This document shows positions 15,901-31,191 of a DNA stretch of 32,000 nucleotides, piece after piece. The translations under genes were made by a program, and so were the position numbers. This stretch comes from Calothrix sp. 336/3 (lineage in GTDB: Bacteria > Cyanobacteriota > Cyanobacteriia > Cyanobacteriales > Nostocaceae): positions 690,700 to 722,699 of the forward strand of contig NZ_CP011382.1 of the NCBI RefSeq assembly GCF_000734895.2, in the 5' to 3' direction. Below the pieces are notes generated by a model. It ran no database searches, was not told the DNA's origin, and saw nothing but the letters and a program-made list of their open reading frames with translations. Within the stretch, counting starts at the first letter, position 1, and every line of letters starts with the position of its first letter.

Positions 15901-18228
15901 ATGGTACAGCAACTAAATTCTTTTCCCCCCGCTTCAGTTCCAGATTCAAAAATTCCGACTTTGCGACAGTTTCATCATTTTCCCGATGATTGGCCCGATG
16001 AAAGTAGAATTGACTTGAATATTCATGATTTGCCCCATAATTCATCAACCTTAGAGTGGTGGTATGTAAATAGTCATTTCACAAGGGTTGATGGTAGAAA
16101 ATTCTCCTTATTTGCCTCCTTTTTTCGGATGATGATCAGCAAGGAGGAGGAAACAAAAGCAGCAAAATATGCCCATGCAATTATTTGGGGAATTAGTGAT
16201 GTTGAGCAAAAAAAATATTATACAGGTTCCTTACTAGATGCATCGGCTCCCGAAATTATCTTGAAAATCATTAATAGTGATAATTGTAAAGCAGATGGGA
16301 TGCTACGACGTGCTTTGCGGGAGGTATTAGAACAGGGAAAAATTCCCCAACCAGATGGCATTCTGCAAAGAGAAGTGTTAGTGAATTTGCAGAAGTTAGA
16401 GCTAGATTTTGATGGTAATCGCTTTGTCAAAATTCATGGTTGCGAGGATGAAAGAGAGTCAAATCATAGCTACCATTTGACTTTATTAGATAGGGAACAG
16501 GGGATTGAGTGTCAACTCTATTTCCATCCCCAGAAAGCAGCTGTGCGCCATGGGGATCAGGGTGTGGTGCGTGGGATTGCGGGGGAAGATATGTTTTACT
16601 ATTTTATCCCCCAGTGTCAGGTGGAAGGGATGGTAGTCATTGAGGGTGAAGCTCTTGGGATTACGGAAGGGGTAGGTTGGTATGATCATGAGTTTGGTAA
16701 GGGTGCTGCGGACACTTCCCAGTTAGATACTAAGCATGATATTGCCTGGAACTGGATATCAGCACAATTAAGTAACGGCTATCAGATAAGTGCTTTTGAC
16801 TTATTTGATCAAGAGAATCATGGTAAGAGTCATGGACGTTGGGCAGTAGTAATCGATACCAAGGGCAATTGGCAAACCTATGAAGAGTTTACCTTTCAGC
16901 CTGTGAATAGTTGGGTGAGTACACGGACTTTTAGTAGTTATCCAGTCAGATGGCAGTTGGAGATTCCCTTGGCAAATGTGAGTCTCGATATCACTGCGAC
17001 TTTTCCCAATCAGGAGTTTGTGACGATTATTTCCCGACCAGCATTTTGGGAAGGACGGGTGGATATTGTCGGGAATATTGGTGGTGAGGTAGTGGAGGGG
17101 CTAGGGTTTGTCGAGCGGACTGGTTTTGATGCGGTGGAAACCCTGGAAGGTTTTTTGCGTGCGGTGAGTCGGGAAACTCAAAAATCCATGCAGGAAATTT
17201 TGCCCCTAAATCCGACACAGGAGCAGCTGTGTCAGTTGGTAGCAAGTCCGGGGTATGAGCATTATCTGCAAGGTTTGGATACACAGCAATACTCCCAAGC
17301 GTTGATACAACCGATTCGAGAGATGAGCGATCGCGGTGGAAAATCTTGGCGTTCCTATGCTGCTCTTGTCTGTTTGCAACTTGTTGGTGGTAATTCCCAG
17401 GGATTAACCCATTGGTTAGCATGGCCCGAATTATTACACATTGGCTCTCTGATTGTTGATGATGTTGAAGATGGTTCGACTGTGCGTCGGGGGGGAGCAT
17501 CCTGTCATAGTATCTACGGGGAAGCTTTGGCAATTAATGCGGGTAATGCAAGTTACTTTTTGGGACAAATACTGTTACTGAATTCTCACCTGTCAGAGGC
17601 AGAAAAATTACAAGTCTATGAATTATATTTTACCACTTTGCGAGCTGCCCATGCAGGTCAAGCCATTGATATTCATGGTTTCCAGCACTTGATGTCTGGG
17701 ATGATTGAGCAGGGTAAGGGTGAATTGTTACAGGAAAGGGTTTTGGCAGTGCATCGCTTGAAATCGGCGGTTCCAGCTCGTTCTGTTGCGGAATTAGGCG
17801 CGATTTTAGGGGGGGGTACAAAGACTGAGATTCAAGCATTGGGGAACTTTTTTGAGTCCCTGGGGCTAGCTTTTCAAATTATCGATGATGTTCTCAATCT
17901 CAAGGGATTTGCGAATAATTTGAAATCCCAGGGGGAGGATATTTCCTGTGGCAAAATTACCCTACCCGTTGCCAAGGCAATTTCTAGATTACCTCTGCAA
18001 GAACAGCGTCTATTGTGGGAAACCATTGCAACTCAACCCAGGGAACCGGAAATTATTGCGGATGTGATTGGCAAATTAGAAAATTGTGGGGCGATCACTG
18101 CTTGTGAGCGACAAGCTGAGGAACTAGTTGAATCTGCTTGGCAACAACTTAATCCTCTATTTTCTGACTCAGATATGAAGGTAAGACTACGTGCTTTTAG
18201 CTGGTATGTTCTAGCTCGCCATTATTAG
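15901..18228 (+). CDS. fusion protein: N-terminal AttH/CrtC-like (lipocalin-like, carotenoid-hydratase family) domain plus C-terminal polyprenyl (GGPP-type) synthase domain
   Basis: The N-terminal half carries LEWWYVNSHFTRVDGRKFSLFASFFR and GVGWYDHEFG, which are AttH/CrtC hallmarks. The C-terminal half carries LHIGSLIVDDVEDGSTVRRGGASCHSIYGEALAINAGNASYFLG (first Asp-rich motif), AHAGQAIDI, LGLAFQIIDDVLNL (second Asp-rich motif) and EDISCGKITLP. It is collinear with eukaryote-type GGPP synthases. Confidence 0.85.
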   Translation: MVQQLNSFPPASVPDSKIPTLRQFHHFPDDWPDESRIDLNIHDLPHNSSTLEWWYVNSHFTRVDGRKFSLFASFFRMMISKEEETKAAKYAHAIIWGISDVEQKKYYTGSLLDASAPEIILKIINSDNCKADGMLRRALREVLEQGKIPQPDGILQREVLVNLQKLELDFDGNRFVKIHGCEDERESNHSYHLTLLDREQGIECQLYFHPQKAAVRHGDQGVVRGIAGEDMFYYFIPQCQVEGMVVIEGEALGITEGVGWYDHEFGKGAADTSQLDTKHDIAWNWISAQLSNGYQISAFDLFDQENHGKSHGRWAVVIDTKGNWQTYEEFTFQPVNSWVSTRTFSSYPVRWQLEIPLANVSLDITATFPNQEFVTIISRPAFWEGRVDIVGNIGGEVVEGLGFVERTGFDAVETLEGFLRAVSRETQKSMQEILPLNPTQEQLCQLVASPGYEHYLQGLDTQQYSQALIQPIREMSDRGGKSWRSYAALVCLQLVGGNSQGLTHWLAWPELLHIGSLIVDDVEDGSTVRRGGASCHSIYGEALAINAGNASYFLGQILLLNSHLSEAEKLQVYELYFTTLRAAHAGQAIDIHGFQHLMSGMIEQGKGELLQERVLAVHRLKSAVPARSVAELGAILGGGTKTEIQALGNFFESLGLAFQIIDDVLNLKGFANNLKSQGEDISCGKITLPVAKAISRLPLQEQRLLWETIATQPREPEIIADVIGKLENCGAITACERQAEELVESAWQQLNPLFSDSDMKVRLRAFSWYVLARHY

Positions 18229-19830: not shown

Positions 19831-20244
19831 GTGTCAGCGAAAGATATATTCCACAATGCGGCAAGATCTGCTTTAGAGAATGATGGCTGGACAGTTACAG
19901 AGCCATTATATTTAAGGTTAGGAGACGACCAGTTACGAATAGATTTGGCTGCTGAACGTATAATCACAGCAGAGCGCGCGCAAGAAAAAATAGCAGTAGA
20001 AGTAAAGAGTTTTCTAGGAGCATCGGCGATTACAGATTTCCATACAGCGTTAGGGCAATTTCTTAACTATAGGGCAGTACTACGTATACAACAGCCAGAG
20101 CGTCAACTATATTTGGCTGTGACAACAGAAATATATCGAACTTTTTTTCGTAGAGATTTACCCAAATTAAGTGTTCAAACTTACCAAATAAAATTATTAA
20201 TATTCGATCCAGTAACTGAGGTGATTGAACAATGGATAAATTAA
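19831..20244 (+). CDS. xisH: XisH family protein (fdxN-element excision controlling factor homolog)
   Basis: (GTG)SAKDIFHNAARSALENDGWTVT...IDLAAERIITAERAQEKIAVEVKSF...QWIN is collinear with XisH as I remember it. Confidence 0.9.
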   Translation: MSAKDIFHNAARSALENDGWTVTEPLYLRLGDDQLRIDLAAERIITAERAQEKIAVEVKSFLGASAITDFHTALGQFLNYRAVLRIQQPERQLYLAVTTEIYRTFFRRDLPKLSVQTYQIKLLIFDPVTEVIEQWIN

Positions 20245-20567
20245 ATCACTACCGTCAACTGATTCGTGAATGCCTGTTACCATATTTGGAAATGAAACCA
20301 TCAGGTGGAGAAATAGAAGTTTATAAAATGTTTGATACTGAGGACGACCACTATCAAATATTTCATGCTGGTTGGGATGGTTTTCAAAGAATATATGGTG
20401 CCGTGATACACATAGATATAATTGATGATAAGATTTGGATTCAATACGATGGCACAGAAGATGGTGTTGCGAATACTTTAGTGGAATTAGGTGTACCCAA
20501 GCAAGATATTGTATTAGCTTATCACTCAGCTTTTTTGCGCCAATATGATGGGTTTGCCGTTAGATAA
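20232..20567 (+). CDS. xisI: XisI family protein
   Basis: MDKLNHYRQLIRECLLPY...GEIEVYKMFDTEDDHYQIFHAGWDG...KIWIQYDGTEDGVANTLVELGVPKQDIVLAY. It overlaps xisH by 13 nt. Confidence 0.9.
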   Translation: MDKLNHYRQLIRECLLPYLEMKPSGGEIEVYKMFDTEDDHYQIFHAGWDGFQRIYGAVIHIDIIDDKIWIQYDGTEDGVANTLVELGVPKQDIVLAYHSAFLRQYDGFAVR

Positions 20568-22791: not shown

Positions 22792-24000
22792 TCACGTTGA
22801 TTTATTGCTATTCATCCGAGTTTGGCGATCGTAGTTACCCAACACTTTTGATGTGAGTCCAAAATCGGTGACAGCTAGAATTTTCATTTCGATATCGCCA
22901 GTATTTTGTGACTGGTGAATACACCATCGGGGAATAAACACCACATCTCCAGCAACCACTGAAATTAATTCATGGTCTATAAGTACTTGACCAGAACCTT
23001 GCAGGATATAAAATAGCGTTTCATGGGCATGGCGGTGCTTTTCATTATTTTTACCCGCAGGAATACTCACAAGCCGGGGATCTAAAACTTGGGTTGTGGG
23101 GAAGGAGAATCCGGCGACGGCAAACTCAATATTCAGATGAGGTACAGTATTATTATAGATTTTAGTCTCAGCTTGGGTAATATTACCCTTTAAATTACTA
23201 ATATCTCCTACTTGTTGCGCGAGAGATTTACGGTTTTTAATTGTACTAACTAGGGATGAATTAAAGCCTCCTGTTATCTGTTCATAGAGAGATTCAAAAA
23301 AATTAGCACGAGCGATTAAAGCGCGATCGCTAGCTTGTAGGCAAGTATCAAACCATTCTGGTATATCTTGGTAAGAACACATCATTTCTGTGAGAGTGGC
23401 TGCGTGTTCGTCATCACAACCGATGTGGATATGGAAAAATTCCAGTTCACTATCTGCAAACCCAGCTTGTCGCATTCCTGTTACCATAATTTGATACATA
23501 CGAGAGACAATCCCCTCTGTCCCTAGGGATAGCCATGCACAACCCCATAGTGGATCCGCTTGGATAGTATTTTGCAGATATAAATCGACAAATTCTTGAG
23601 TGAAGCTTTTAAATTTAATCTGAGTCAAATCATTGATAAACAGAGAGTTTTTCATAAAATTCCGAAAAATTTCGGCATGACTGACTCCACCATTTTCCCC
23701 ACTTTCTTCCCAGAGATTTTGAGTGAGTTTGGCACGAAATTGATCGCGATCGCAATTAGCCATGACTCCCGCAACATAGCGAGTAAAGTTTTTAGAATAG
23801 AGATAATACTGGGAAAAAATTTCGATAAAATCCTGTTTGGTTAATTCTCCTTGCAGACAAGCAGTGAAGAAACGATTTTGCCAAAAAGGATGATTCTCTA
23901 CAAAACTATGGAGTTTGTCTAATTGATGGTTGGTTTGCTCTGTAGTATTGAGTGAGGTTGACAGATGTAACATAAAATTTCTAGCTCCAAAATTTTCCAA
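22792..24000 (-). CDS. heme-oxygenase-like diiron oxidase (HDO) domain fused to a C-terminal cupin domain
   Basis: HDO ligand pattern NLWEESGENGGVSHAEIF (E...H), LGTEGIV (E) and HIHIGCDDEHA (H-x3-D-x2-H). Cupin motifs HRHAHETLFYILQGSG and GDVVFIPRWCIHQSQNTG. The track start is TTG 24000; ATG 23973 is the alternative. Confidence 0.75.
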   Translation of the reverse strand: MENFGARNFMLHLSTSLNTTEQTNHQLDKLHSFVENHPFWQNRFFTACLQGELTKQDFIEIFSQYYLYSKNFTRYVAGVMANCDRDQFRAKLTQNLWEESGENGGVSHAEIFRNFMKNSLFINDLTQIKFKSFTQEFVDLYLQNTIQADPLWGCAWLSLGTEGIVSRMYQIMVTGMRQAGFADSELEFFHIHIGCDDEHAATLTEMMCSYQDIPEWFDTCLQASDRALIARANFFESLYEQITGGFNSSLVSTIKNRKSLAQQVGDISNLKGNITQAETKIYNNTVPHLNIEFAVAGFSFPTTQVLDPRLVSIPAGKNNEKHRHAHETLFYILQGSGQVLIDHELISVVAGDVVFIPRWCIHQSQNTGDIEMKILAVTDFGLTSKVLGNYDRQTRMNSNKST

Positions 24001-24148
24001 ATTTTTTCAAGGTTTTCAAATAGCACGATTTTTTTGCACACCTGTAACTGTGAGAGATAGTGAATTATCCTCGCTCTCCCAAATATCTGATTTTTCTTGA
24101 GTAATACCAATTTGAAAAAACAATACGACACATGAAACCCCTCCCCAA

Positions 24149-24170
24149 CCCTCCCCGAAATCGGGGAGGG
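24149..24170. repeat. perfect hairpin ccctccccg-aaat-cggggaggg inside a G/C-tract repeat element
   Basis: 9-bp stem and 4-nt loop, read directly. It is flanked by cccctccccaa and ggcgggtggggt tracts, typical of cyanobacterial intergenic repeat elements. Confidence 0.6.
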
Positions 24171-24715
24171 TGCCCGATAGGGCGGGTGGGGTATCTCCCG
24201 TAAACATTTTTTGAATCGGTATAAGTTAGCAACATCAGCCGTAAAATCACTTATTCTCAAAGTATTTTTACTTCCATATGCCGTTACATGGGTTTTTGCG
24301 TGGTTACTTACCTATACCTATGTATCTCTAGTACCGGATGGGGGTATGCATTTTTTGGAGTACCCCATATACCAGGCACGATATCAGCGAAAAAGCTTTG
24401 GTTTAACGTTGTTTAGCGCCCATATTCCAGGAAGACGCACCAGGGAAAAGCCAAAAATCATTTCGGAAGTCAGGGAATTTTAGGATAGTAAAAACCGCAA
24501 TAACGGTGGTATGAATCCGTCATAAGTCTGGTGACAAAGTACTTTGTTTCCGGATTCAACTTCCGTAATCACCGATAGTAACAATTAAGGGTGGGCAAAA
24601 TTCGCCGATAGATATAACCCTAACCTTGGCGATCGCCCATAACAAGAGATACCATCCTTTGGTAAGAAACCCCTTGGCTTCACAACCGACTATCTTTTAT
24701 ATGTGTTTTACAAAA

Positions 24716-24789
24716 TCGGAGCGGCGGGATTCGAACCCACGACCTCCACTACCCCAAAGTGGCGCGCTACCAAGCTGCGCTACGCCCCG
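24716..24789 (-). tRNA. tRNA-Pro (anticodon GGG), no encoded CCA
   Basis: Cloverleaf folded by hand on the minus strand: acceptor CGGGGCG/CGCUCCG, D arm GCGC-AGCUUGGUA-GCGC, anticodon arm CCACU-UUGGGGU-AGUGG, variable loop AGGUC, T arm GUGGG-UUCGAAU-CCCGC, discriminator A. Confidence 0.92.
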
Positions 24790-24911: not shown

Positions 24912-25289
24912 CTAAAAAACTTTTAAAGTTTCTAATGCTTGACGAAGTTGAGGTACTACCCCAGCTTCCCATGCTCCCTCAACACCCCGCTCACAGGAGA
25001 GGATAAAACGTAAACTGTAAGCATGGGCATAGCCAGAAACTTCCATCCACAACAAATCACTTTCCGCTTCACAGGTGATTTTCTCTTCTGCCATTAATTC
25101 CGCAGCTATTTGCTGTATTGTTTCTGTGAGTTGTTGTAGCAGGCGACAAAAATCTGCTAATTCTGCTTCTGTTAACTCAATTGCCCAGTCATCATTTCCC
25201 AGTAAAGCTTGATATTTGACAGCAGAGGGATTCCAACCAACTCGCCAACCCTTACCACTTTTAATTAAACGTTCCATTTCATGAATCAC
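24912..25289 (-). CDS. conserved cyanobacterial hypothetical protein (possibly DUF1818-like)
   Basis: 125-aa ORF with coding-like composition. The family assignment is from memory only. Confidence 0.55.
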   Translation of the reverse strand: MIHEMERLIKSGKGWRVGWNPSAVKYQALLGNDDWAIELTEAELADFCRLLQQLTETIQQIAAELMAEEKITCEAESDLLWMEVSGYAHAYSLRFILSCERGVEGAWEAGVVPQLRQALETLKVF

Positions 25290-25372
25290 AACGGTAAGCT
25301 TTGAATATAGTCTATTTTTCTGTGGTGTCTTTTTCCTCCTAATTTTGCATTTGGAATTGTGAATTGTTTACC

Positions 25373-26926
25373 ATGCCCCTATCCCGTATAGTCACACTCA
25401 TTGTTGGACTGATTGTTATTTTGGGACTGAGTCTATGGTTAATTGACTCATTGTCTCGCTTGTATTGGCAATTATCCTATTCTCCCCTATTAGGGAATTT
25501 ACTGTTATTACTGTTAGTGGTACTAATTGGGGCGTTAATTGCAGCATTTGTCTATTATGTCTTGGTAATGGGTGGGGGAGGAATCAAAGGTAAACGACGT
25601 AAGGTTTCCCCACGACGACAAGTACAAATCCCAGAGGCGAAATCAGAAGCTGCTTCGACAACCCTGCAAGCAGTACGACAGCAAGTTTCCCAAATTCAGG
25701 ATGAAGTAGCACGACAAGCTCTGCTGAGTAAGTCACGGGAAATTGAGGCTAATTTGGCACGGGGGGAAATTCAGGTAGTGGTATTTGGTACGGGGAGTGC
25801 GGGCAAAACTTCCTTGGTGAATGCAGTGATGGGAAGAATGGTAGGGAGAGTTGACGCACCGATGGGAACAACAACGGTGGGTGAGACTTACTGTCTGCGG
25901 TTGAAGGGTTTGGAAAGGAAGATTTTAATTACCGATACTCCGGGGATTTTAGAAGCAGGGGTGGCGGGTACTGAGAGAGAGCAGTTAGCTAGGGAACTAG
26001 CAACATCCGCAGATTTACTTTTATTTGTAGTTGATAATGACTTAAGACGTTCAGAATACGAGCCTTTACAAGCTTTAGCAGCCATTGGCAAACGTTCAGT
26101 TTTAGTATTAAATAAAACTGACTTGTATACGGAAACAGACAAAGAAGCAATTTTAGCAAGGTTGCGGCAACGGGTACGGGGCTTTATTTCCACAAACGAT
26201 GTGGTGGCGATCGCGGCTAATCCCCAATCAATAGAATTAGAAAATGGAGAACTTGCCCAACCAGAACCAGAAATTTTACCCCTATTACGACGGATGGCGG
26301 CAATTTTACGGGCAGAAGGGGAAGATTTGGTGGCAGATAATATTTTGCTGCAATCCATGCGTCTAGGAGAAGAAGCACGCAAATTAATTGATGCCCAACG
26401 CCGTCGCCAAGCTGAGAAAATTGTCGAGAGGTTCCAGTGGATTGGGGCGGGTGTGGTATCGGTGACACCCTTGCCGGTGGTAGACTTACTAGCTACGGCG
26501 GCGGTAAATGCCCAAATGGTGGTGGAAATTGGCAGAATTTACGGCTGTGAGTTGAATATGGAGCGGGGGCGAGAATTAGCCCTATCCTTGGCGAAAACCA
26601 TTGCCGGCTTGGGAATTGTCAAGGGTGCTTTGCAGCTACTATCCACAGCTTTACAACTCAACGTCGGTACTTTTATTCTTGGGCGAGCCATCCAAGGAGT
26701 CACTGCTGCCTATTTAACCAGAATTGCTGGTAAAAGTTTTATTGAGTACTTCCGCAATGATCAAGACTGGGGTGACGGAGGAATGACGGAAGTTGTACAG
26801 CGTCAATTTCAACTCAACCGTCGAGATGAATTTGTCAAAGCATTTATTCAACAGGCGATCGCCAAGGTTGTCAAACCCCTAGCTGAGAAAGTTGAGGCAA
26901 TGGAACAGGAAGAGACAGAAAAATAA
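25373..26926 (+). CDS. membrane-associated GTP-binding protein with a C-terminal DUF697 (YcjF-like) domain
   Basis: Two N-terminal TM helices; G1 GTGSAGKTS, G3 DTPG, G4 NKTD. The C-terminal block IGAGVVSVTPLPVVDLLATAAVNAQMVVEIGRIYG is typical of DUF697. I prefer ATG 25373 over TTG 25364. Confidence 0.8.
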   Translation: MPLSRIVTLIVGLIVILGLSLWLIDSLSRLYWQLSYSPLLGNLLLLLLVVLIGALIAAFVYYVLVMGGGGIKGKRRKVSPRRQVQIPEAKSEAASTTLQAVRQQVSQIQDEVARQALLSKSREIEANLARGEIQVVVFGTGSAGKTSLVNAVMGRMVGRVDAPMGTTTVGETYCLRLKGLERKILITDTPGILEAGVAGTEREQLARELATSADLLLFVVDNDLRRSEYEPLQALAAIGKRSVLVLNKTDLYTETDKEAILARLRQRVRGFISTNDVVAIAANPQSIELENGELAQPEPEILPLLRRMAAILRAEGEDLVADNILLQSMRLGEEARKLIDAQRRRQAEKIVERFQWIGAGVVSVTPLPVVDLLATAAVNAQMVVEIGRIYGCELNMERGRELALSLAKTIAGLGIVKGALQLLSTALQLNVGTFILGRAIQGVTAAYLTRIAGKSFIEYFRNDQDWGDGGMTEVVQRQFQLNRRDEFVKAFIQQAIAKVVKPLAEKVEAMEQEETEK

Positions 26927-27290: not shown

Positions 27291-27803
27291 ATGACTCAAA
27301 GAAACATCTACAGCATTGCTGTTGCAGCTTTTGCATTTATGGGTGGGGCAACTGCGCCTTTCACACCAGTTCAAAGTACTACACTCAAACCCTTGCAACT
27401 GGCACAATCAACTCCTACCATTGCTGCCATTGAAAATTCCGTTCATCAGCAAATAAACCAGTTGCGGAGTTCTCAAAGTCTACCACCCTTAACGCGCAAC
27501 TCAGCCATAGACAATCAAGCCAGAATACATAGCCAGAATATGGCTAGTGGAAAAGTTCCATTCAATCATACCGGTTTTTCACAACGAATTCAGGCAACCC
27601 GTATTTCCTACAGTTCAGCTGCCGAAAATATTGCCCGCAACTCTGGATATAGCGATCCTGCTACCCAAGCAGTGCAAGGTTGGCGCTTTAGTTCTGGACA
27701 TTTCCAGAATATCAGAGGTAATTACAACCTCACAGGTATTGGTGTTGCCAGAAATAACAAAGGTGAATATTTCTTTACCCAAATATTTATCCGTAGCCGA
27801 TAA
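27291..27803 (+). CDS. secreted CAP/SCP/PR-1-like domain protein (YkwD-like)
   Basis: Signal-peptide-like N-terminus IAVAAFAFMGGATAPF. CAP motifs HSQNMA, AENIA and GHFQNI. Confidence 0.75.
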   Translation: MTQRNIYSIAVAAFAFMGGATAPFTPVQSTTLKPLQLAQSTPTIAAIENSVHQQINQLRSSQSLPPLTRNSAIDNQARIHSQNMASGKVPFNHTGFSQRIQATRISYSSAAENIARNSGYSDPATQAVQGWRFSSGHFQNIRGNYNLTGIGVARNNKGEYFFTQIFIRSR

Positions 27804-28022: not shown

Positions 28023-30572
28023 TCACTTCACTTGAGAAAGCCAAGACTCCCTATCAATACGCTCGGCTATCGGGTGTTTAGTTGTTGCTCCAACTTCAGA
28101 TGTATCCATATGCCATCCTTGCCAAGTCTGCGCAGCCAGTTGAGAAAACTCACCTTTGACTTGGAAACAAGTAGGATTATCTTCTCTACTCCACAAACGA
28201 CAAAGCAAGTCTAATACTTTGTCCGAGGTATGATTACCCATGGGGTTAAGTTTGTCCTTGTTGGATTCAATTAATTTATCTTCTTCCTTAAACAACTTAC
28301 CCAGTCTCTGCTTAATACTGAAGTTACCTAGCTTATTGGAACATCTGCCAATATTGAAAAGTGCATCACAGATGCGGCGATTTAATCCTAAATATATTGC
28401 TCCTTTCAGTGCCTCTAGAAAATGTTCTAAAGCTTTGTTCGGCTCATTTTCAATTAGCAGTAAATATTCTCCATTTAGCAGGGAAATCTCCGAGAGAACC
28501 GCTTGGCAAAAACTTTGGCTGTGACCAAAGGTTAAATCAGTTTTCGCCAGTTGATCAGCGAATTTTAATGCCTGTTGTGGCAACTTATCTTCTCCTAGTC
28601 TCACCCAAACTCTTCCTGCTAAGGCTAACCAGCGAGATGCTCTGCGAGTTAAGCCAATACGTAAAGCGTAATGGGCTGCCCTAATAAAATATTCTGCGGC
28701 TTGCTCTAAGGTATCCCTATCATCACTCAGATAGAACTCAATTCGCCCAACATTCCCATAAATTTCAGACAAGGCTTGATAAATATCCAAACCAGGGTCT
28801 TTATAGCAAGAACCTAGTTTAATAACACGTCTAATTTTCTCATCCCATTCTTTTAATCCTAGCCACTGACTTCTCTTACTAGCTACAAATAAATCGGGAT
28901 TATGCCCACAGGAAAGCTCATATAAATACACTTCTGAGCGAATTAGAGCAAGTATGGGGATAATCTCTTCTTCTATTTCCTTATCCTTATCAATTTCTTG
29001 TTGAATTTCTTTAATTAGTAGTCGGGCATTACTAATATTGCCTTGGGTATTATAAAGTCTGAGTTCCAGGCGTTTTGCAAGAAAATAACAACGGTAGAAG
29101 TTAAGTCGATAGGAAAAATAAATCTTCTCTTGGGGGATTTTTTTTAATTCCTCCCTAGCTGTATCTGCAATTCTTTTAATTTCCCTAGAATTACATTCAT
29201 CACCCAGAAACTGAAATTTTTGAAAAGCTCTTCTGGCTCTAGTTAATTGTGCTCTTAATCCACAAAGAGCTTTAAATGCGGAATTATATACTTCTAAATC
29301 AAGTTCACCACTCCAGCTTTTATCTGCTAGCCATGACTTGGCACCACAAACTATGGCTTGCAAAATCGTAATCATGGAATCTCTATCAACCCAAATTCCT
29401 TGATAATGTCGTTGATGTCCTAGAATAACTGTGGTTTCAACTAGGGAATCAATACTGCTATCTAAGGTTTTTGTGAATAGAGTAATTTTACCTACCTCCT
29501 TGGTTAATCCCATATGGAGACTACAAGCACCAATGGCATTCTCAATCATTGTGTTGTTAGAGGTATACATCCATTCCAGATATTCAGTTGGTTTGTCATT
29601 ATGGCTAAAGCTACAGGTAACTACAGCCATCATTATGGGACTGCGGGAGTCAAAGGACTGCACTTCTGGTTGCGTTGTCAAGTAGATATCAGAAGTATTT
29701 AGTTCCCACTCTGCTTGATTTGCAATCTTGACAAAGAGGTCATAGACTGCTCCATATTCTGCTTGTTTACTAATAGACTGGGATAAAATTTGAAATTCTA
29801 ATTTTTCCACTCTCAGGTGTAGGTTAGTCGGATATTTAGGCATTTGCTCTTTAATTGCAATGCTCAGAAACAGTCCGATCGCCTCTTGCTGAGTGAAGTT
29901 TGTCTTACCTCCTGCTTTCAATCTGCTCCAGGTTCTTTGTAGTTTGTCAATGACTTCGAGTCGGAGCTTTAAACCCAACATGACGCTGAAACTGGAACTT
30001 GTCATCGGGTCGGATTTGCGCAGATTATCAATTAAATATTCGAGAAAATCATCCTCTTGATTCTCTCCAAAAAATTTTTTACTGGCAATGGCTATTTTAT
30101 TGCTGGCGATCGCCAAGAATTCTTGGGTTGTGGGCAGAAAATCTTCAAAACGCAAAAACTCCAGCAAGGCAACGACTTGAGCTACTTGAAAGAATCTTTC
30201 TGGTGTTATCCTAATAATATTATTGTTCTCTGGCAAAAAGCCCGCAGACTCCAGTAATTCATCAGAACCAATCTTTCCTAACAACTTCCGCAGTTCATCA
30301 GGAGTCAGATCTATTTCTCCTCTGGTTTTTTCACCATCGTTTTTAGACTTCCTTTTAGATACCTGACGACTTTGCAATTTGTTCCACAGTTCAATCAAAC
30401 CTTTTCTATCAACTGGCAATCTTTCCTTTTCCTTATTCAGAAAATCAATTACCACTGGTCGGCTAACATTCATCCCCTCCGAGAGTTCCACCTGGGTTGC
30501 TCCCATCTTGTCGAGAAAGAAGCGGAGCATCTCCCTCAGGGCTTCTTGATCTCCCACGTTTTCCCTGCTCAT
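28023..30572 (-). CDS. large (849 aa) orphan protein: N-terminal XRE-type helix-turn-helix, a central unknown domain, and a TPR-like helical C-terminal half
   Basis: HTH segment MGATQVELSEGMNVSRPVVIDFLNKE. The C-terminal half contains TPR-like helix pairs (e.g. EQAAEYFIRAAHYALRIGLTRRASRWLALAGRVWVRLGE and ALEHFLEALKGAIYLGLNRRICDALFNIGRC). There is no P-loop. The gene is visibly more AT-rich than the neighbouring core genes. Confidence 0.7.
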   Translation of the reverse strand: MSRENVGDQEALREMLRFFLDKMGATQVELSEGMNVSRPVVIDFLNKEKERLPVDRKGLIELWNKLQSRQVSKRKSKNDGEKTRGEIDLTPDELRKLLGKIGSDELLESAGFLPENNNIIRITPERFFQVAQVVALLEFLRFEDFLPTTQEFLAIASNKIAIASKKFFGENQEDDFLEYLIDNLRKSDPMTSSSFSVMLGLKLRLEVIDKLQRTWSRLKAGGKTNFTQQEAIGLFLSIAIKEQMPKYPTNLHLRVEKLEFQILSQSISKQAEYGAVYDLFVKIANQAEWELNTSDIYLTTQPEVQSFDSRSPIMMAVVTCSFSHNDKPTEYLEWMYTSNNTMIENAIGACSLHMGLTKEVGKITLFTKTLDSSIDSLVETTVILGHQRHYQGIWVDRDSMITILQAIVCGAKSWLADKSWSGELDLEVYNSAFKALCGLRAQLTRARRAFQKFQFLGDECNSREIKRIADTAREELKKIPQEKIYFSYRLNFYRCYFLAKRLELRLYNTQGNISNARLLIKEIQQEIDKDKEIEEEIIPILALIRSEVYLYELSCGHNPDLFVASKRSQWLGLKEWDEKIRRVIKLGSCYKDPGLDIYQALSEIYGNVGRIEFYLSDDRDTLEQAAEYFIRAAHYALRIGLTRRASRWLALAGRVWVRLGEDKLPQQALKFADQLAKTDLTFGHSQSFCQAVLSEISLLNGEYLLLIENEPNKALEHFLEALKGAIYLGLNRRICDALFNIGRCSNKLGNFSIKQRLGKLFKEEDKLIESNKDKLNPMGNHTSDKVLDLLCRLWSREDNPTCFQVKGEFSQLAAQTWQGWHMDTSEVGATTKHPIAERIDRESWLSQVK

Positions 30573-30804: not shown

Positions 30805-31191
30805 ATGCCTCCTCAAAGGGTTGAGGCTTTTCTCAACTACTGCGAACAGAGGATAGCTAGGTTTCAACAAGCTAACAACACTGGACTTCTAGAGATTTTA
30901 TGCAGTCTTGATTATCGAGGTTACGGCAAAGTCGAGTGTCGCTGTGGGGATTTCCAACATTTCCTGATTTCGCCAGAAGACTTAGCTATCTGGAAAACAC
31001 ATCCGTTGTCTCGACAAAGGGAAAACTTAGAAACCATAGAACAGGTTCTGGCAAAGCTTGATAGTGCATTGTTCGAGACTTTTTGTCTGCAACAAGGTTA
31101 TGCAACTATATTAGCGTGGTATCGTGGGCAGGATGGTCTATATGGTTTTCAGTTTTCGCCATCAATAGTCCATGGAATTAAGCCTTGTTGA
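30805..31191 (+). CDS. hypothetical protein (128 aa), divergent from the 849-aa gene
   Basis: ORF with AAGGA 8 nt upstream of the ATG. No family recognised. Confidence 0.5.
   Translation: MPPQRVEAFLNYCEQRIARFQQANNTGLLEILCSLDYRGYGKVECRCGDFQHFLISPEDLAIWKTHPLSRQRENLETIEQVLAKLDSALFETFCLQQGYATILAWYRGQDGLYGFQFSPSIVHGIKPC

Follow-up and report, generated by a model that had tools for sequence, protein, structure and literature searches.

About a dozen heme-oxygenase-like diiron oxidases (HDOs) have been characterized so far, and according to a 2026 review SznF is the only one of them with a C-terminal cupin. SznF is the N-nitrosourea synthase of streptozotocin biosynthesis in Streptomyces achromogenes (PDB 6M9R, 6VZY), a protein of three domains, and it provides the precedent for an HDO-to-cupin relay, there acting on arginine. 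The subject here is a gene of the cyanobacterium Calothrix sp. 336/3 that lies at 22792..23973 on the minus strand of a 32,000-nucleotide stretch of DNA (contig NZ_CP011382.1, positions 690,700 to 722,699; the whole stretch is called the window below) and encodes a protein of 393 amino acids. Like SznF, this protein has an HDO followed by a C-terminal three-histidine (3-His) cupin on one polypeptide. The comparison points to a second, independently assembled HDO–cupin family alongside SznF, one that is widespread in soil and freshwater bacteria and found outside natural-product clusters. The two domains have intact metal sites, their pairing is obligate, and genes for nitrate or nitric oxide (NO) sensors and for a small ferredoxin recur beside relatives of the gene.

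Several other described systems bear on the comparison. SznF binds its dimetal cofactor with a 3His/4carboxylate set in which the seventh ligand, E189, sits in a beta-turn insertion in auxiliary helix 2. BesC (4-chloro-allylglycine synthase) and HrmI (lysine N6-oxygenase) are 3His/3carboxylate HDOs that work on free amino acids, and their ligand set supports C–C fragmentation or N-oxygenation. The extra Glu had previously been proposed to go with N-oxygenation, and the 3His/3carboxylate set with substrate-coordinating, C–H-cleaving HDOs; since HrmI is a 3His/3carboxylate N-oxygenase, the number of ligands does not discriminate between N-oxygenation and C–H chemistry. In SznF homologs of the GrbD/ChmM type, an inactive HDO is paired with a heme N-oxygenase, ChmN. 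A published census of SznF homologs, collected by BLAST from SznF at 1e-110, recognized three clusters, none of them described as a stand-alone family of ~400 amino acids.

Gene and Dimetal Site

The minus-strand open reading frame spans 22792..24000 and has 402 codons if counted from a TTG. The ATG at 23973, nine codons inside that TTG, is probably the true start. The identical database protein (P0001) has 393 amino acids, and homologs begin at the equivalent position in the alignment; on these two grounds the coding sequence is taken as 22792–23973, with its stop codon at 22792–22794 and an N terminus that reads MLHLSTSL. The preliminary description of this DNA had extended the gene to 24000, which is ~27 nucleotides too far upstream given this ATG. 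The nine in-frame codons in between (23974..24000, minus strand) are probably untranslated, and a weak promoter-like TTGAAA-16-GAAAAT at 24019-23992 overlaps them. Residue numbers below count from the ATG unless the 402-residue numbering is stated.

The HDO domain covers residues 12–246 (23236..23940, minus strand). It matches Haem_oxygenas_2 (PF14518) of Pfam-A at 3e-21, above the gathering score, over residues 61–228 in the 402-residue numbering. The preliminary description had seen a six-ligand HDO pattern in this domain, and every motif of it is present: WEE...H supplies E90 (codon 23704-23706) and H99 (23677-23679), LGTEG supplies E153 (23515-23517), and HIHIGCDDEH supplies H183-x3-D187-x2-H190 (23425-23427, 23413-23415 and 23404-23406). 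All six residues are invariant in an alignment of 34 sequences (46–80% identity) and stay so when six stand-alone HDO partners that are only 21–27% identical are added, a degree of conservation that goes far past chance. As read from these columns, the HDO is predicted to carry the complete 3His/3carboxylate set of dimetal ligands that HDOs bear on core helices 1-3.

An AF2 model built on the 34-homolog alignment (mean pLDDT 85) shows a helical domain, a long linker helix and a beta-barrel. Residues 7–246 are helical, as expected of the seven-helix heme-oxygenase-like fold, with pLDDT mostly >90; the pTM of 0.62 makes the orientation of one domain to the other uncertain. A Foldseek search of the PDB ranks CADD/CT610 (1RCW) first for the helical domain (E 7e-9, TM 0.87 normalized to the target). 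A profile of the HDO that includes the distant stand-alone partners gives the same answer against the PDB, with CADD at 1.8e-18, NePabS at 3.3e-17 and BesC at 1.7e-15, and it also matches FlcD-like entries and HrmI (2.7e-6). In the phmmer alignment, E90, H99 and E153 fall on the CADD ligands E81, H88 and E142.

The same heme-oxygenase-like fold is used by TenA/PqqC-type enzymes without a metal, and the preliminary description had counted a placement of the N-terminal domain among them as evidence against its own reading. By sequence it clearly falls on the dimetal-HDO side of the fold: the Pfam family TENA_THI-4 scores E 0.017, below its cut-off, and PqqC structures reach E 0.014-0.15 where CADD reaches 1.8e-18. 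These poorer values, together with the presence of all six metal ligands, led to the rejection of a TenA/PqqC-type assignment. Neither this objection nor the other sequence-based one raised in the preliminary description, variable ligand residues among homologs, therefore applies.

CADD and NePabS are thus the nearest HDO relatives by both sequence and fold. The six ligands are common to all of them, and several second-sphere residues are common to CADD and the window protein, for example Y47/Y56, R71/R80 and N77/N86 (CADD residue first). It could be asked whether the family consists of self-sacrificing p-aminobenzoate synthases of the CADD/NePabS kind with an accessory cupin, and the CADD subfamily model TIGR04305 is indeed the best match in NCBIfam. 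Its score, however, is 62.2 bits against a cut-off of 200, and the residues that make the reaction possible are missing. Tyr27 and Lys152 are essential in CADD; the sacrificial Tyr27 is replaced by F36, a position that is Phe or Leu in the family, and Lys152 by M163, which varies among Met, Phe and Leu. CADD Tyr43 aligns to a non-aromatic residue, and CADD has no cupin partner. The loss of the sacrificial residues effectively refutes p-aminobenzoate synthesis, which is scarcely credible for this family.

Cupin Domain

The HDO is joined to the cupin by a linker and a set of pre-cupin strands, delimited by the alignments and by the secondary structure of the model (residues 247–297; 23083..23235, minus strand). 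Y273, N275, F284, V286 and the D298-x-R300 motif are invariant in this region. In systems with separate genes, the pre-cupin segment travels with the cupin, and stand-alone cupin proteins carry it.

The 3-His cupin itself comprises residues 298–378 (22840..23082, minus strand) and matches Cupin_2 (PF07883) at 8.9e-14, again above the gathering score, over residues 310–377 in the 402-residue numbering. A C-terminal metal-binding cupin had been part of the preliminary description and is borne out by an invariant site. The motif HRHAHET contributes H313, H315, H317 and E318, and IHQSQN contributes H353 with N357; the predicted metal ligands are H313 (23035-23037), H315 (23029-23031) and H353 (22915-22917). 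H313, H315, H317, E318, R349, W350, H353, Q354 and N357 are invariant in the 34-sequence alignment and also in the stand-alone cupin proteins.

A profile of the cupin places gentisate and salicylate 1,2-dioxygenases at the top of the PDB matches (1e-12 to 3e-7), and in the residue-level alignment HRH and PxWxxH fall on the iron-binding motifs of these enzymes. The HRH...PxWxxH motifs are common to the window cupin and to the gentisate, salicylate and 5-nitrosalicylate 1,2-dioxygenases, all of them 3-His Fe(II) cupins. The ring-cleaving enzymes differ in being bicupins or homo-oligomers without an HDO, whereas the window protein has a single cupin and an HDO. Neither dioxygenase model comes near its cut-off: TIGR02272 (gentisate) reaches 22.7 bits of the 442 required, and the one for 5-aminosalicylate dioxygenase 30.7 of 650. 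With a single cupin and scores so far below the cut-offs, assignment as a gentisate 1,2-dioxygenase was rejected. A substrate of the salicylate type is also unlikely: in salicylate dioxygenase 2PHD, Arg127 and His162 bind the aromatic substrate, and the window protein has Phe and Ser at the aligned positions. When the cupin module was used as the query, all the proteins retrieved were unnamed "cupin domain-containing" ones.

Relationship to SznF

The preliminary description had assigned the protein the architecture of SznF-type N–N bond-forming enzymes. This holds for the order of the domains, and in the Foldseek search of the PDB it was SznF alone that aligned over both of them (370-378 columns, 12-13% identity). 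Kinship is a different matter. SznF is absent from a phmmer search and from the HDO profile search of the PDB (both at E<=10), and it is not among the 60 matches listed for the full-length profile (of 139 at E<=1) or the 60 listed for the cupin profile (of 111 at E<=10).

Differences in build accompany this lack of sequence similarity. The N-terminal dimerization domain of SznF is missing, as the HDO fold starts within ~12 residues of the N terminus, and the chain has 393 residues compared with 450-464 in SznF. In both fused and split forms of the family there is no conserved Asp or Glu ~26 residues before E90 (QYYLYSKNFTRY), where SznF has Glu189. This segment aligns without gaps to CADD, which itself lacks the seventh ligand; the comparison with SznF at this point is not at residue level. 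In its ligand set, the window protein is a 3His/3carboxylate enzyme and SznF a 3His/4carboxylate one. SznF is also encoded in a cluster with the SznE methyltransferase, whereas the present family occurs without it across many phyla, as a stand-alone gene or a split pair.

Judged by sequence, membership in the SznF family is not supported. The two domains appear to stem from HDO and cupin lineages other than those of SznF, and an independent fusion is therefore indicated. The logic of the relay, in which oxygenation at a dimetal site is followed by rearrangement at the cupin iron, is likely to be the same in both, by analogy.

A true N-nitrosation of the SznF/GrbD type, making an N-nitrosourea or diazeniumdiolate on arginine for a secondary metabolite, would agree with the shared domain order, with the completeness of both metal sites and with SznF being the sole structural match over two domains. 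A weak Pfam match to the HamA/DUF3050 family, a named member of which forms an N–N bond, could be added on the same side. This activity is nonetheless very improbable for the family. No relationship to SznF is detectable at the sequence level among the matches listed in the PDB searches above, the N-terminal domain and the Glu189 equivalent are both missing, the published census describes no such stand-alone family, and genes for a SznE-type methyltransferase, a nonribosomal peptide synthetase (NRPS) or a polyketide synthase (PKS) are absent from the window and not conserved at other loci. N–N bond formation, as put forward in the preliminary description, is accordingly left without support, while its broader suggestion of nitrogen-oxide chemistry gains circumstantial backing from the sensor genes described below.

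Fused and Split Forms

A search of a collection of 5.8 billion proteins yielded 688 relatives, the best 120 of which are all ~400 amino acids long, have the same two domains and carry generic names only. When 1.84 billion representatives were searched exhaustively with a profile, 144 clusters were returned at E<=1e-30. Matches in genomes come from Cyanobacteria, Sericytochromatia, Blastocatellia and other Acidobacteriota, Kofleriaceae and Polyangiaceae (Myxococcota) and Planctomycetota, and the fused proteins of ~400 amino acids are found in at least four phyla.

Split systems occur in Bacteroidota, sphingomonads and Betaproteobacteria, where an HDO gene of ~250 codons is followed by a cupin gene encoding 165-260 amino acids, often with an overlap of 4 nucleotides. 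One metagenome-assembled genome of Candidatus Sericytochromatia has the inverted order (L063, 7878-9535), with a gene for a 172-amino-acid cupin preceding one for a 380-amino-acid HDO protein. The latter has a cyclic-nucleotide (cNMP)-binding domain fused at the N terminus of the HDO, which suggests cyclic-nucleotide control of this enzyme. Whether by fusion or by adjacency, the HDO and the cupin are kept together, and their coupling is obligate.

The two modules have diverged to very different extents. Between fused and split forms, the cupin module, including ~35 residues before the barrel, is 49-55% identical, and the HDO is 21-27% identical. Among the representatives, a few rare fusions stand out. 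One of them, a protein of 798 amino acids (P0283), has an intact cupin with a degenerate HDO that has lost its ligands and a fused P450 (generic CYP107/105-like, with no specific functional relative). This parallels the GrbD/ChmM systems, in which the cupin is likewise constant and the oxygenase that feeds it exchangeable; those differ in being true SznF homologs within NRPS/PKS clusters, neither of which applies here. Taken together, the conservation of the cupin, the P0283 protein and the ChmN parallel suggest that catalysis centers on a constant cupin, with the HDO as the oxygenase that feeds it. An oxygenase role for the HDO is itself suggested by the P450 that takes the place of the degenerate HDO, as ChmN does.

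A few further fusions were set aside. Two proteins (P0247, 528 amino acids; P0296, 543 amino acids) have an HDO and a cupin followed by a weak globin-like C-terminal tail, which was not used because of its weak similarity to Pfam and PDB entries (36 bits; E 0.0016) and the lack of an evident proximal His. A fusion of an HDO with an aminotransferase (P0367) has no cupin and may come from a different HDO clade.

Sensor and Ferredoxin Genes Beside the Homologs

The gene neighborhoods of homologs were compared at 180 loci, drawn from genomes, metagenomes and contig look-ups and equivalent to 131 clusters at 90% identity. Partners were sought by all-against-all clustering of the open reading frames at 80 genome loci and by Pfam counts over 111 immediate neighbors at non-redundant loci. 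Across these sets and ~130 non-redundant loci, there is no universal partner and no conserved NRPS, PKS or methyltransferase. What the survey does show is a small number of sensors and a ferredoxin that recur in particular lineages.

The most frequent of these is a histidine kinase of the HisKA_3 type with a PilJ domain, which adjoins the gene at 24 loci (20 clusters). Where the arrangement could be resolved, the kinase is directly upstream and divergent, usually with a NarL-type regulator beside it, and the genes on the far side vary. These kinases carry the N-box [IVL][ND]xAGxQRML[ST]Q, exact in 13 open reading frames and with one S-to-G change in another 13. The N-box was defined from the crystal structure of McpN with nitrate and is a published predictor of nitrate binding.

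An H-NOX gene is adjacent in two clades. In Leptolyngbyaceae the H-NOX gene is transcribed divergently and has an HNOBA kinase as its partner; a second, unrelated clade has it in convergent orientation and carries genes for a kinase and an OmpR-type regulator upstream. The two sets of H-NOX proteins are only 22-25% identical to each other, and the His and YxSxR heme motifs are retained in each. Given this low identity and the different gene orders, the association with H-NOX arose twice. Hemerythrin or a hemerythrin-MCP is adjacent at three loci and NnrU at two; both hemerythrin and NnrU are linked to nitrosative or denitrification responses.

On two metagenome contigs (L091, 8897-12859, and L092), the genes upstream of the H-NOX gene, in operon orientation, encode a Cys-rich protein of 408 amino acids with C-x-G-x-C repeats and a protein of 863-904 amino acids. 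Neither has a Pfam match, and the two may be part of a unit linked to H-NOX.

A 2Fe-2S ferredoxin of ~110 amino acids is encoded within 2.6 kb at 21 loci (11 clusters). Among them are all 12 of the genome loci from Planctomycetota, and there the ferredoxin gene is in most cases the next one downstream, in convergent orientation. The kinase, ferredoxin and H-NOX families are found nowhere else in the fetched flanks. A class III aminotransferase beside a Leptolyngbyaceae homolog turned out to be HemL, a housekeeping gene, and was rejected as a clue.

Proposed Reaction and Alternatives

The reading favored here is held tentatively, with somewhat less than even confidence. It takes the family to be a two-step oxygenase, supported by ferredoxin, that acts on a common nitrogenous metabolite with the HDO first and the cupin second and yields a nitrogen oxide, with a place in nitrate and NO physiology. 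In the first step, a CADD/BesC-like HDO with a dimetal site of three His and three carboxylates would activate O2, using electrons from the small 2Fe-2S ferredoxin or an equivalent cellular reductant, to oxygenate a small, common metabolite that contains nitrogen; the probable candidates are free amino acids and the amines or guanidines related to them. The predicted use of a free amino acid would be shared with BesC and HrmI, which unlike the window protein are single-domain enzymes encoded within biosynthetic clusters. In the second step, the intermediate would be handed to the 3-His iron cupin for another oxidative rearrangement or cleavage, with a nitrogen oxide as the product (NO or nitrite, finally nitrate). 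The relay would resemble that of SznF, presumably reached by the independent fusion of other HDO and cupin lineages and used outside natural-product clusters. We infer which class of substrate is used, which step comes first, what is produced and in which direction the reaction runs (whether a nitrogen oxide is made or consumed). The link to nitrogen oxides draws circumstantial support from the N-box kinases (nitrate or nitrite) and H-NOX proteins (NO) beside homologs.

A number of points weigh against this. The window copy has no partner genes, so the evidence from context is borrowed from relatives that are 45-64% identical. The types of neighbor are limited to certain lineages, and most of the 131 clusters show none of them, in part because contigs are short. 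The nearest characterized HDO relatives, CADD and BesC, cleave C–C or C–H bonds and are not N-oxygenases. No biochemical data on any member of the family were found in the literature, nor was any paper that links the HDO and cupin combination to cyanobacteria, to the Pfam architecture or to H-NOX. Sensors encoded next to an enzyme usually detect an inducer or substrate, which would favor a role in consuming a nitrogen oxide.

This last point leads to a second explanation, in which the protein scavenges NO or another nitrogen oxide, with the adjacent sensors switching it on in response to nitrate or NO. The dimetal site would carry out a reduction driven by ferredoxin, much as flavodiiron proteins do, or else the cupin iron a dioxygenation. 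The divergent N-box kinase and NarL genes and the H-NOX/kinase pairs are arranged as expected of regulators that sense an inducer, the neighboring ferredoxin suits a reductive reaction, and the occasional hemerythrin and NnrU genes would fit as well, since they are tied to nitrosative and denitrification responses. Scavenging is still unlikely. Neither NO reductase nor NO dioxygenase activity is known from any characterized HDO or cupin, and the characterized HDOs oxidize organic compounds with O2. It would also leave unexplained the strict pairing of two metal domains, the P450 that substitutes for a degenerate HDO, and a transporter gene found in Bacteroidota.

That transporter belongs to a set of neighbors that do not speak of nitrogen at all. 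In split systems of Bacteroidota (L096-L098, 6261-8929; L079/L080), a gene for a major facilitator superfamily (MFS) transporter lies downstream of the HDO–cupin pair and on its strand, and a glutathione peroxidase gene is divergently upstream, unlike the sensor-rich contexts of the fused forms. These contexts point to oxidative stress or transport. The closest homologs of the window gene (76-77% identity) are flanked by a divergently transcribed TetR regulator gene and, on the downstream side, by a Zn-dependent alcohol dehydrogenase (Zn-ADH) gene of the quinone-oxidoreductase type, which carry no nitrogen signal. Both observations count against the two-step oxygenase that yields a nitrogen oxide.

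They also invite an explanation in which the oxidation is unrelated to nitrogen oxides. The HDO would carry out C–C or C–H chemistry of the BesC/UndA type on an amino or fatty acid, followed by dioxygenation at the cupin, and the sensors would reflect O2 or redox regulation or coincidence. In line with this, the closest matches of the HDO profile are CADD, NePabS and BesC, not the N-oxygenases SznF and RohS, the 3His/3carboxylate set without an extra Glu has been proposed to favor C–H-cleaving HDOs, and the closest relatives of the cupin are ring-cleaving dioxygenases. In some organisms, moreover, H-NOX and hemerythrin can act as O2 sensors. Such chemistry is somewhat unlikely in view of three findings: the N-box recurs in 20 clusters, the H-NOX association arose twice independently, and HrmI manages N-oxygenation with a 3His/3carboxylate site.

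A more specific form of the favored two-step oxygenase would be an NO-synthase-like system that is independent of heme and pterin. The HDO would N-hydroxylate a guanidino or amino metabolite such as arginine with electrons from ferredoxin, the cupin would release NO, which would go on to nitrite and nitrate, and H-NOX and the N-box kinases would act as cognate receivers or feedback sensors. This is quite unlikely as it stands. If true, bacteria would have a second route to NO, and a widespread one, present in cyanobacteria, myxobacteria, planctomycetes and acidobacteria, with NO serving as an endogenous signal or as a means of mobilizing nitrogen.

The placement of nitrate/NO-sensor and ferredoxin genes offers a concrete and testable hypothesis, namely that bacteria possess an unrecognized iron enzyme for making or removing a nitrogen oxide. 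Either activity would add a new reaction to the chemistry of HDOs and cupins and a new component to bacterial nitrate/NO signaling or to the biology of nitrosative stress. The family should be tractable by experiment, given its split and fused forms, its ferredoxin partner and cultured hosts such as Leptolyngbya sp. NK1-12 and Polyangium spp.

The Gene in Its Own Window

In the window, the gene is solitary, as the preliminary description had noted. chlB is 427 nucleotides downstream on the same strand, an adjacency that is not conserved at any other locus and was treated as a coincidence. The other neighbors are genes for tRNA-Pro, a DUF1818 protein, a DUF697 GTPase and XisH/XisI. The window contains neither a partner of the NRPS, PKS or methyltransferase kind nor, at any position, a relative of the TetR, Zn-ADH, H-NOX, ferredoxin or N-box kinase genes.

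Upstream of the gene is a non-coding tract of 742 nucleotides (23974..24715) that reaches to tRNA-Pro (anticodon GGG; 24716-24789, minus strand), recognized by both ARAGORN and Rfam. This tRNA gene is on the same strand as the HDO–cupin gene, is the only RNA gene that these two detect in the window and is the only Rfam match for the tract. Rfam shows no riboswitch or known RNA upstream of the gene in the window or at nine homologous loci. A scan of the region for promoters and terminators gave counts at the level of chance, and its repeats are unremarkable. The tract includes a G+C-rich imperfect palindrome at 24127-24201 (CCCTCCCCGATTTCGGGGAGGGTTGGGGAGGG and its flanks) that was classed as terminator-like by its score and is similar to the short hairpin repeats dispersed through the genomes of filamentous cyanobacteria; its sub-threshold Rfam match to drz-agam-1 (E 0.94) is probably due to chance.

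Elsewhere in the window, a 849-amino-acid frame at 28023-30572 (minus strand) and a 128-amino-acid frame at 30805-31191 have no Pfam-A match at E<=0.001. Beyond the tRNA gene is a divergent pair encoding a DUF1818 protein (24912-25289, minus strand) and a membrane-anchored GTPase of 520 amino acids with MMR_HSR1 and DUF697 domains (25364-26926, plus strand), and a CAP/SCP-domain protein is encoded at 27291-27803. Just downstream of chlB, an overlapping XisH/XisI pair at 19831-20567 (plus strand; Pfam 1.8e-52 and 2e-42) is of a kind typical of heterocyst-forming or filamentous cyanobacteria. A 775-amino-acid frame at 15901-18228 (plus strand) encodes CrtC-type lipocalin domains (CrtC N-terminal and Lipocalin_9) and, at its C terminus, a polyprenyl synthetase domain; among carotenoid or isoprenoid enzymes such a fusion is unusual.

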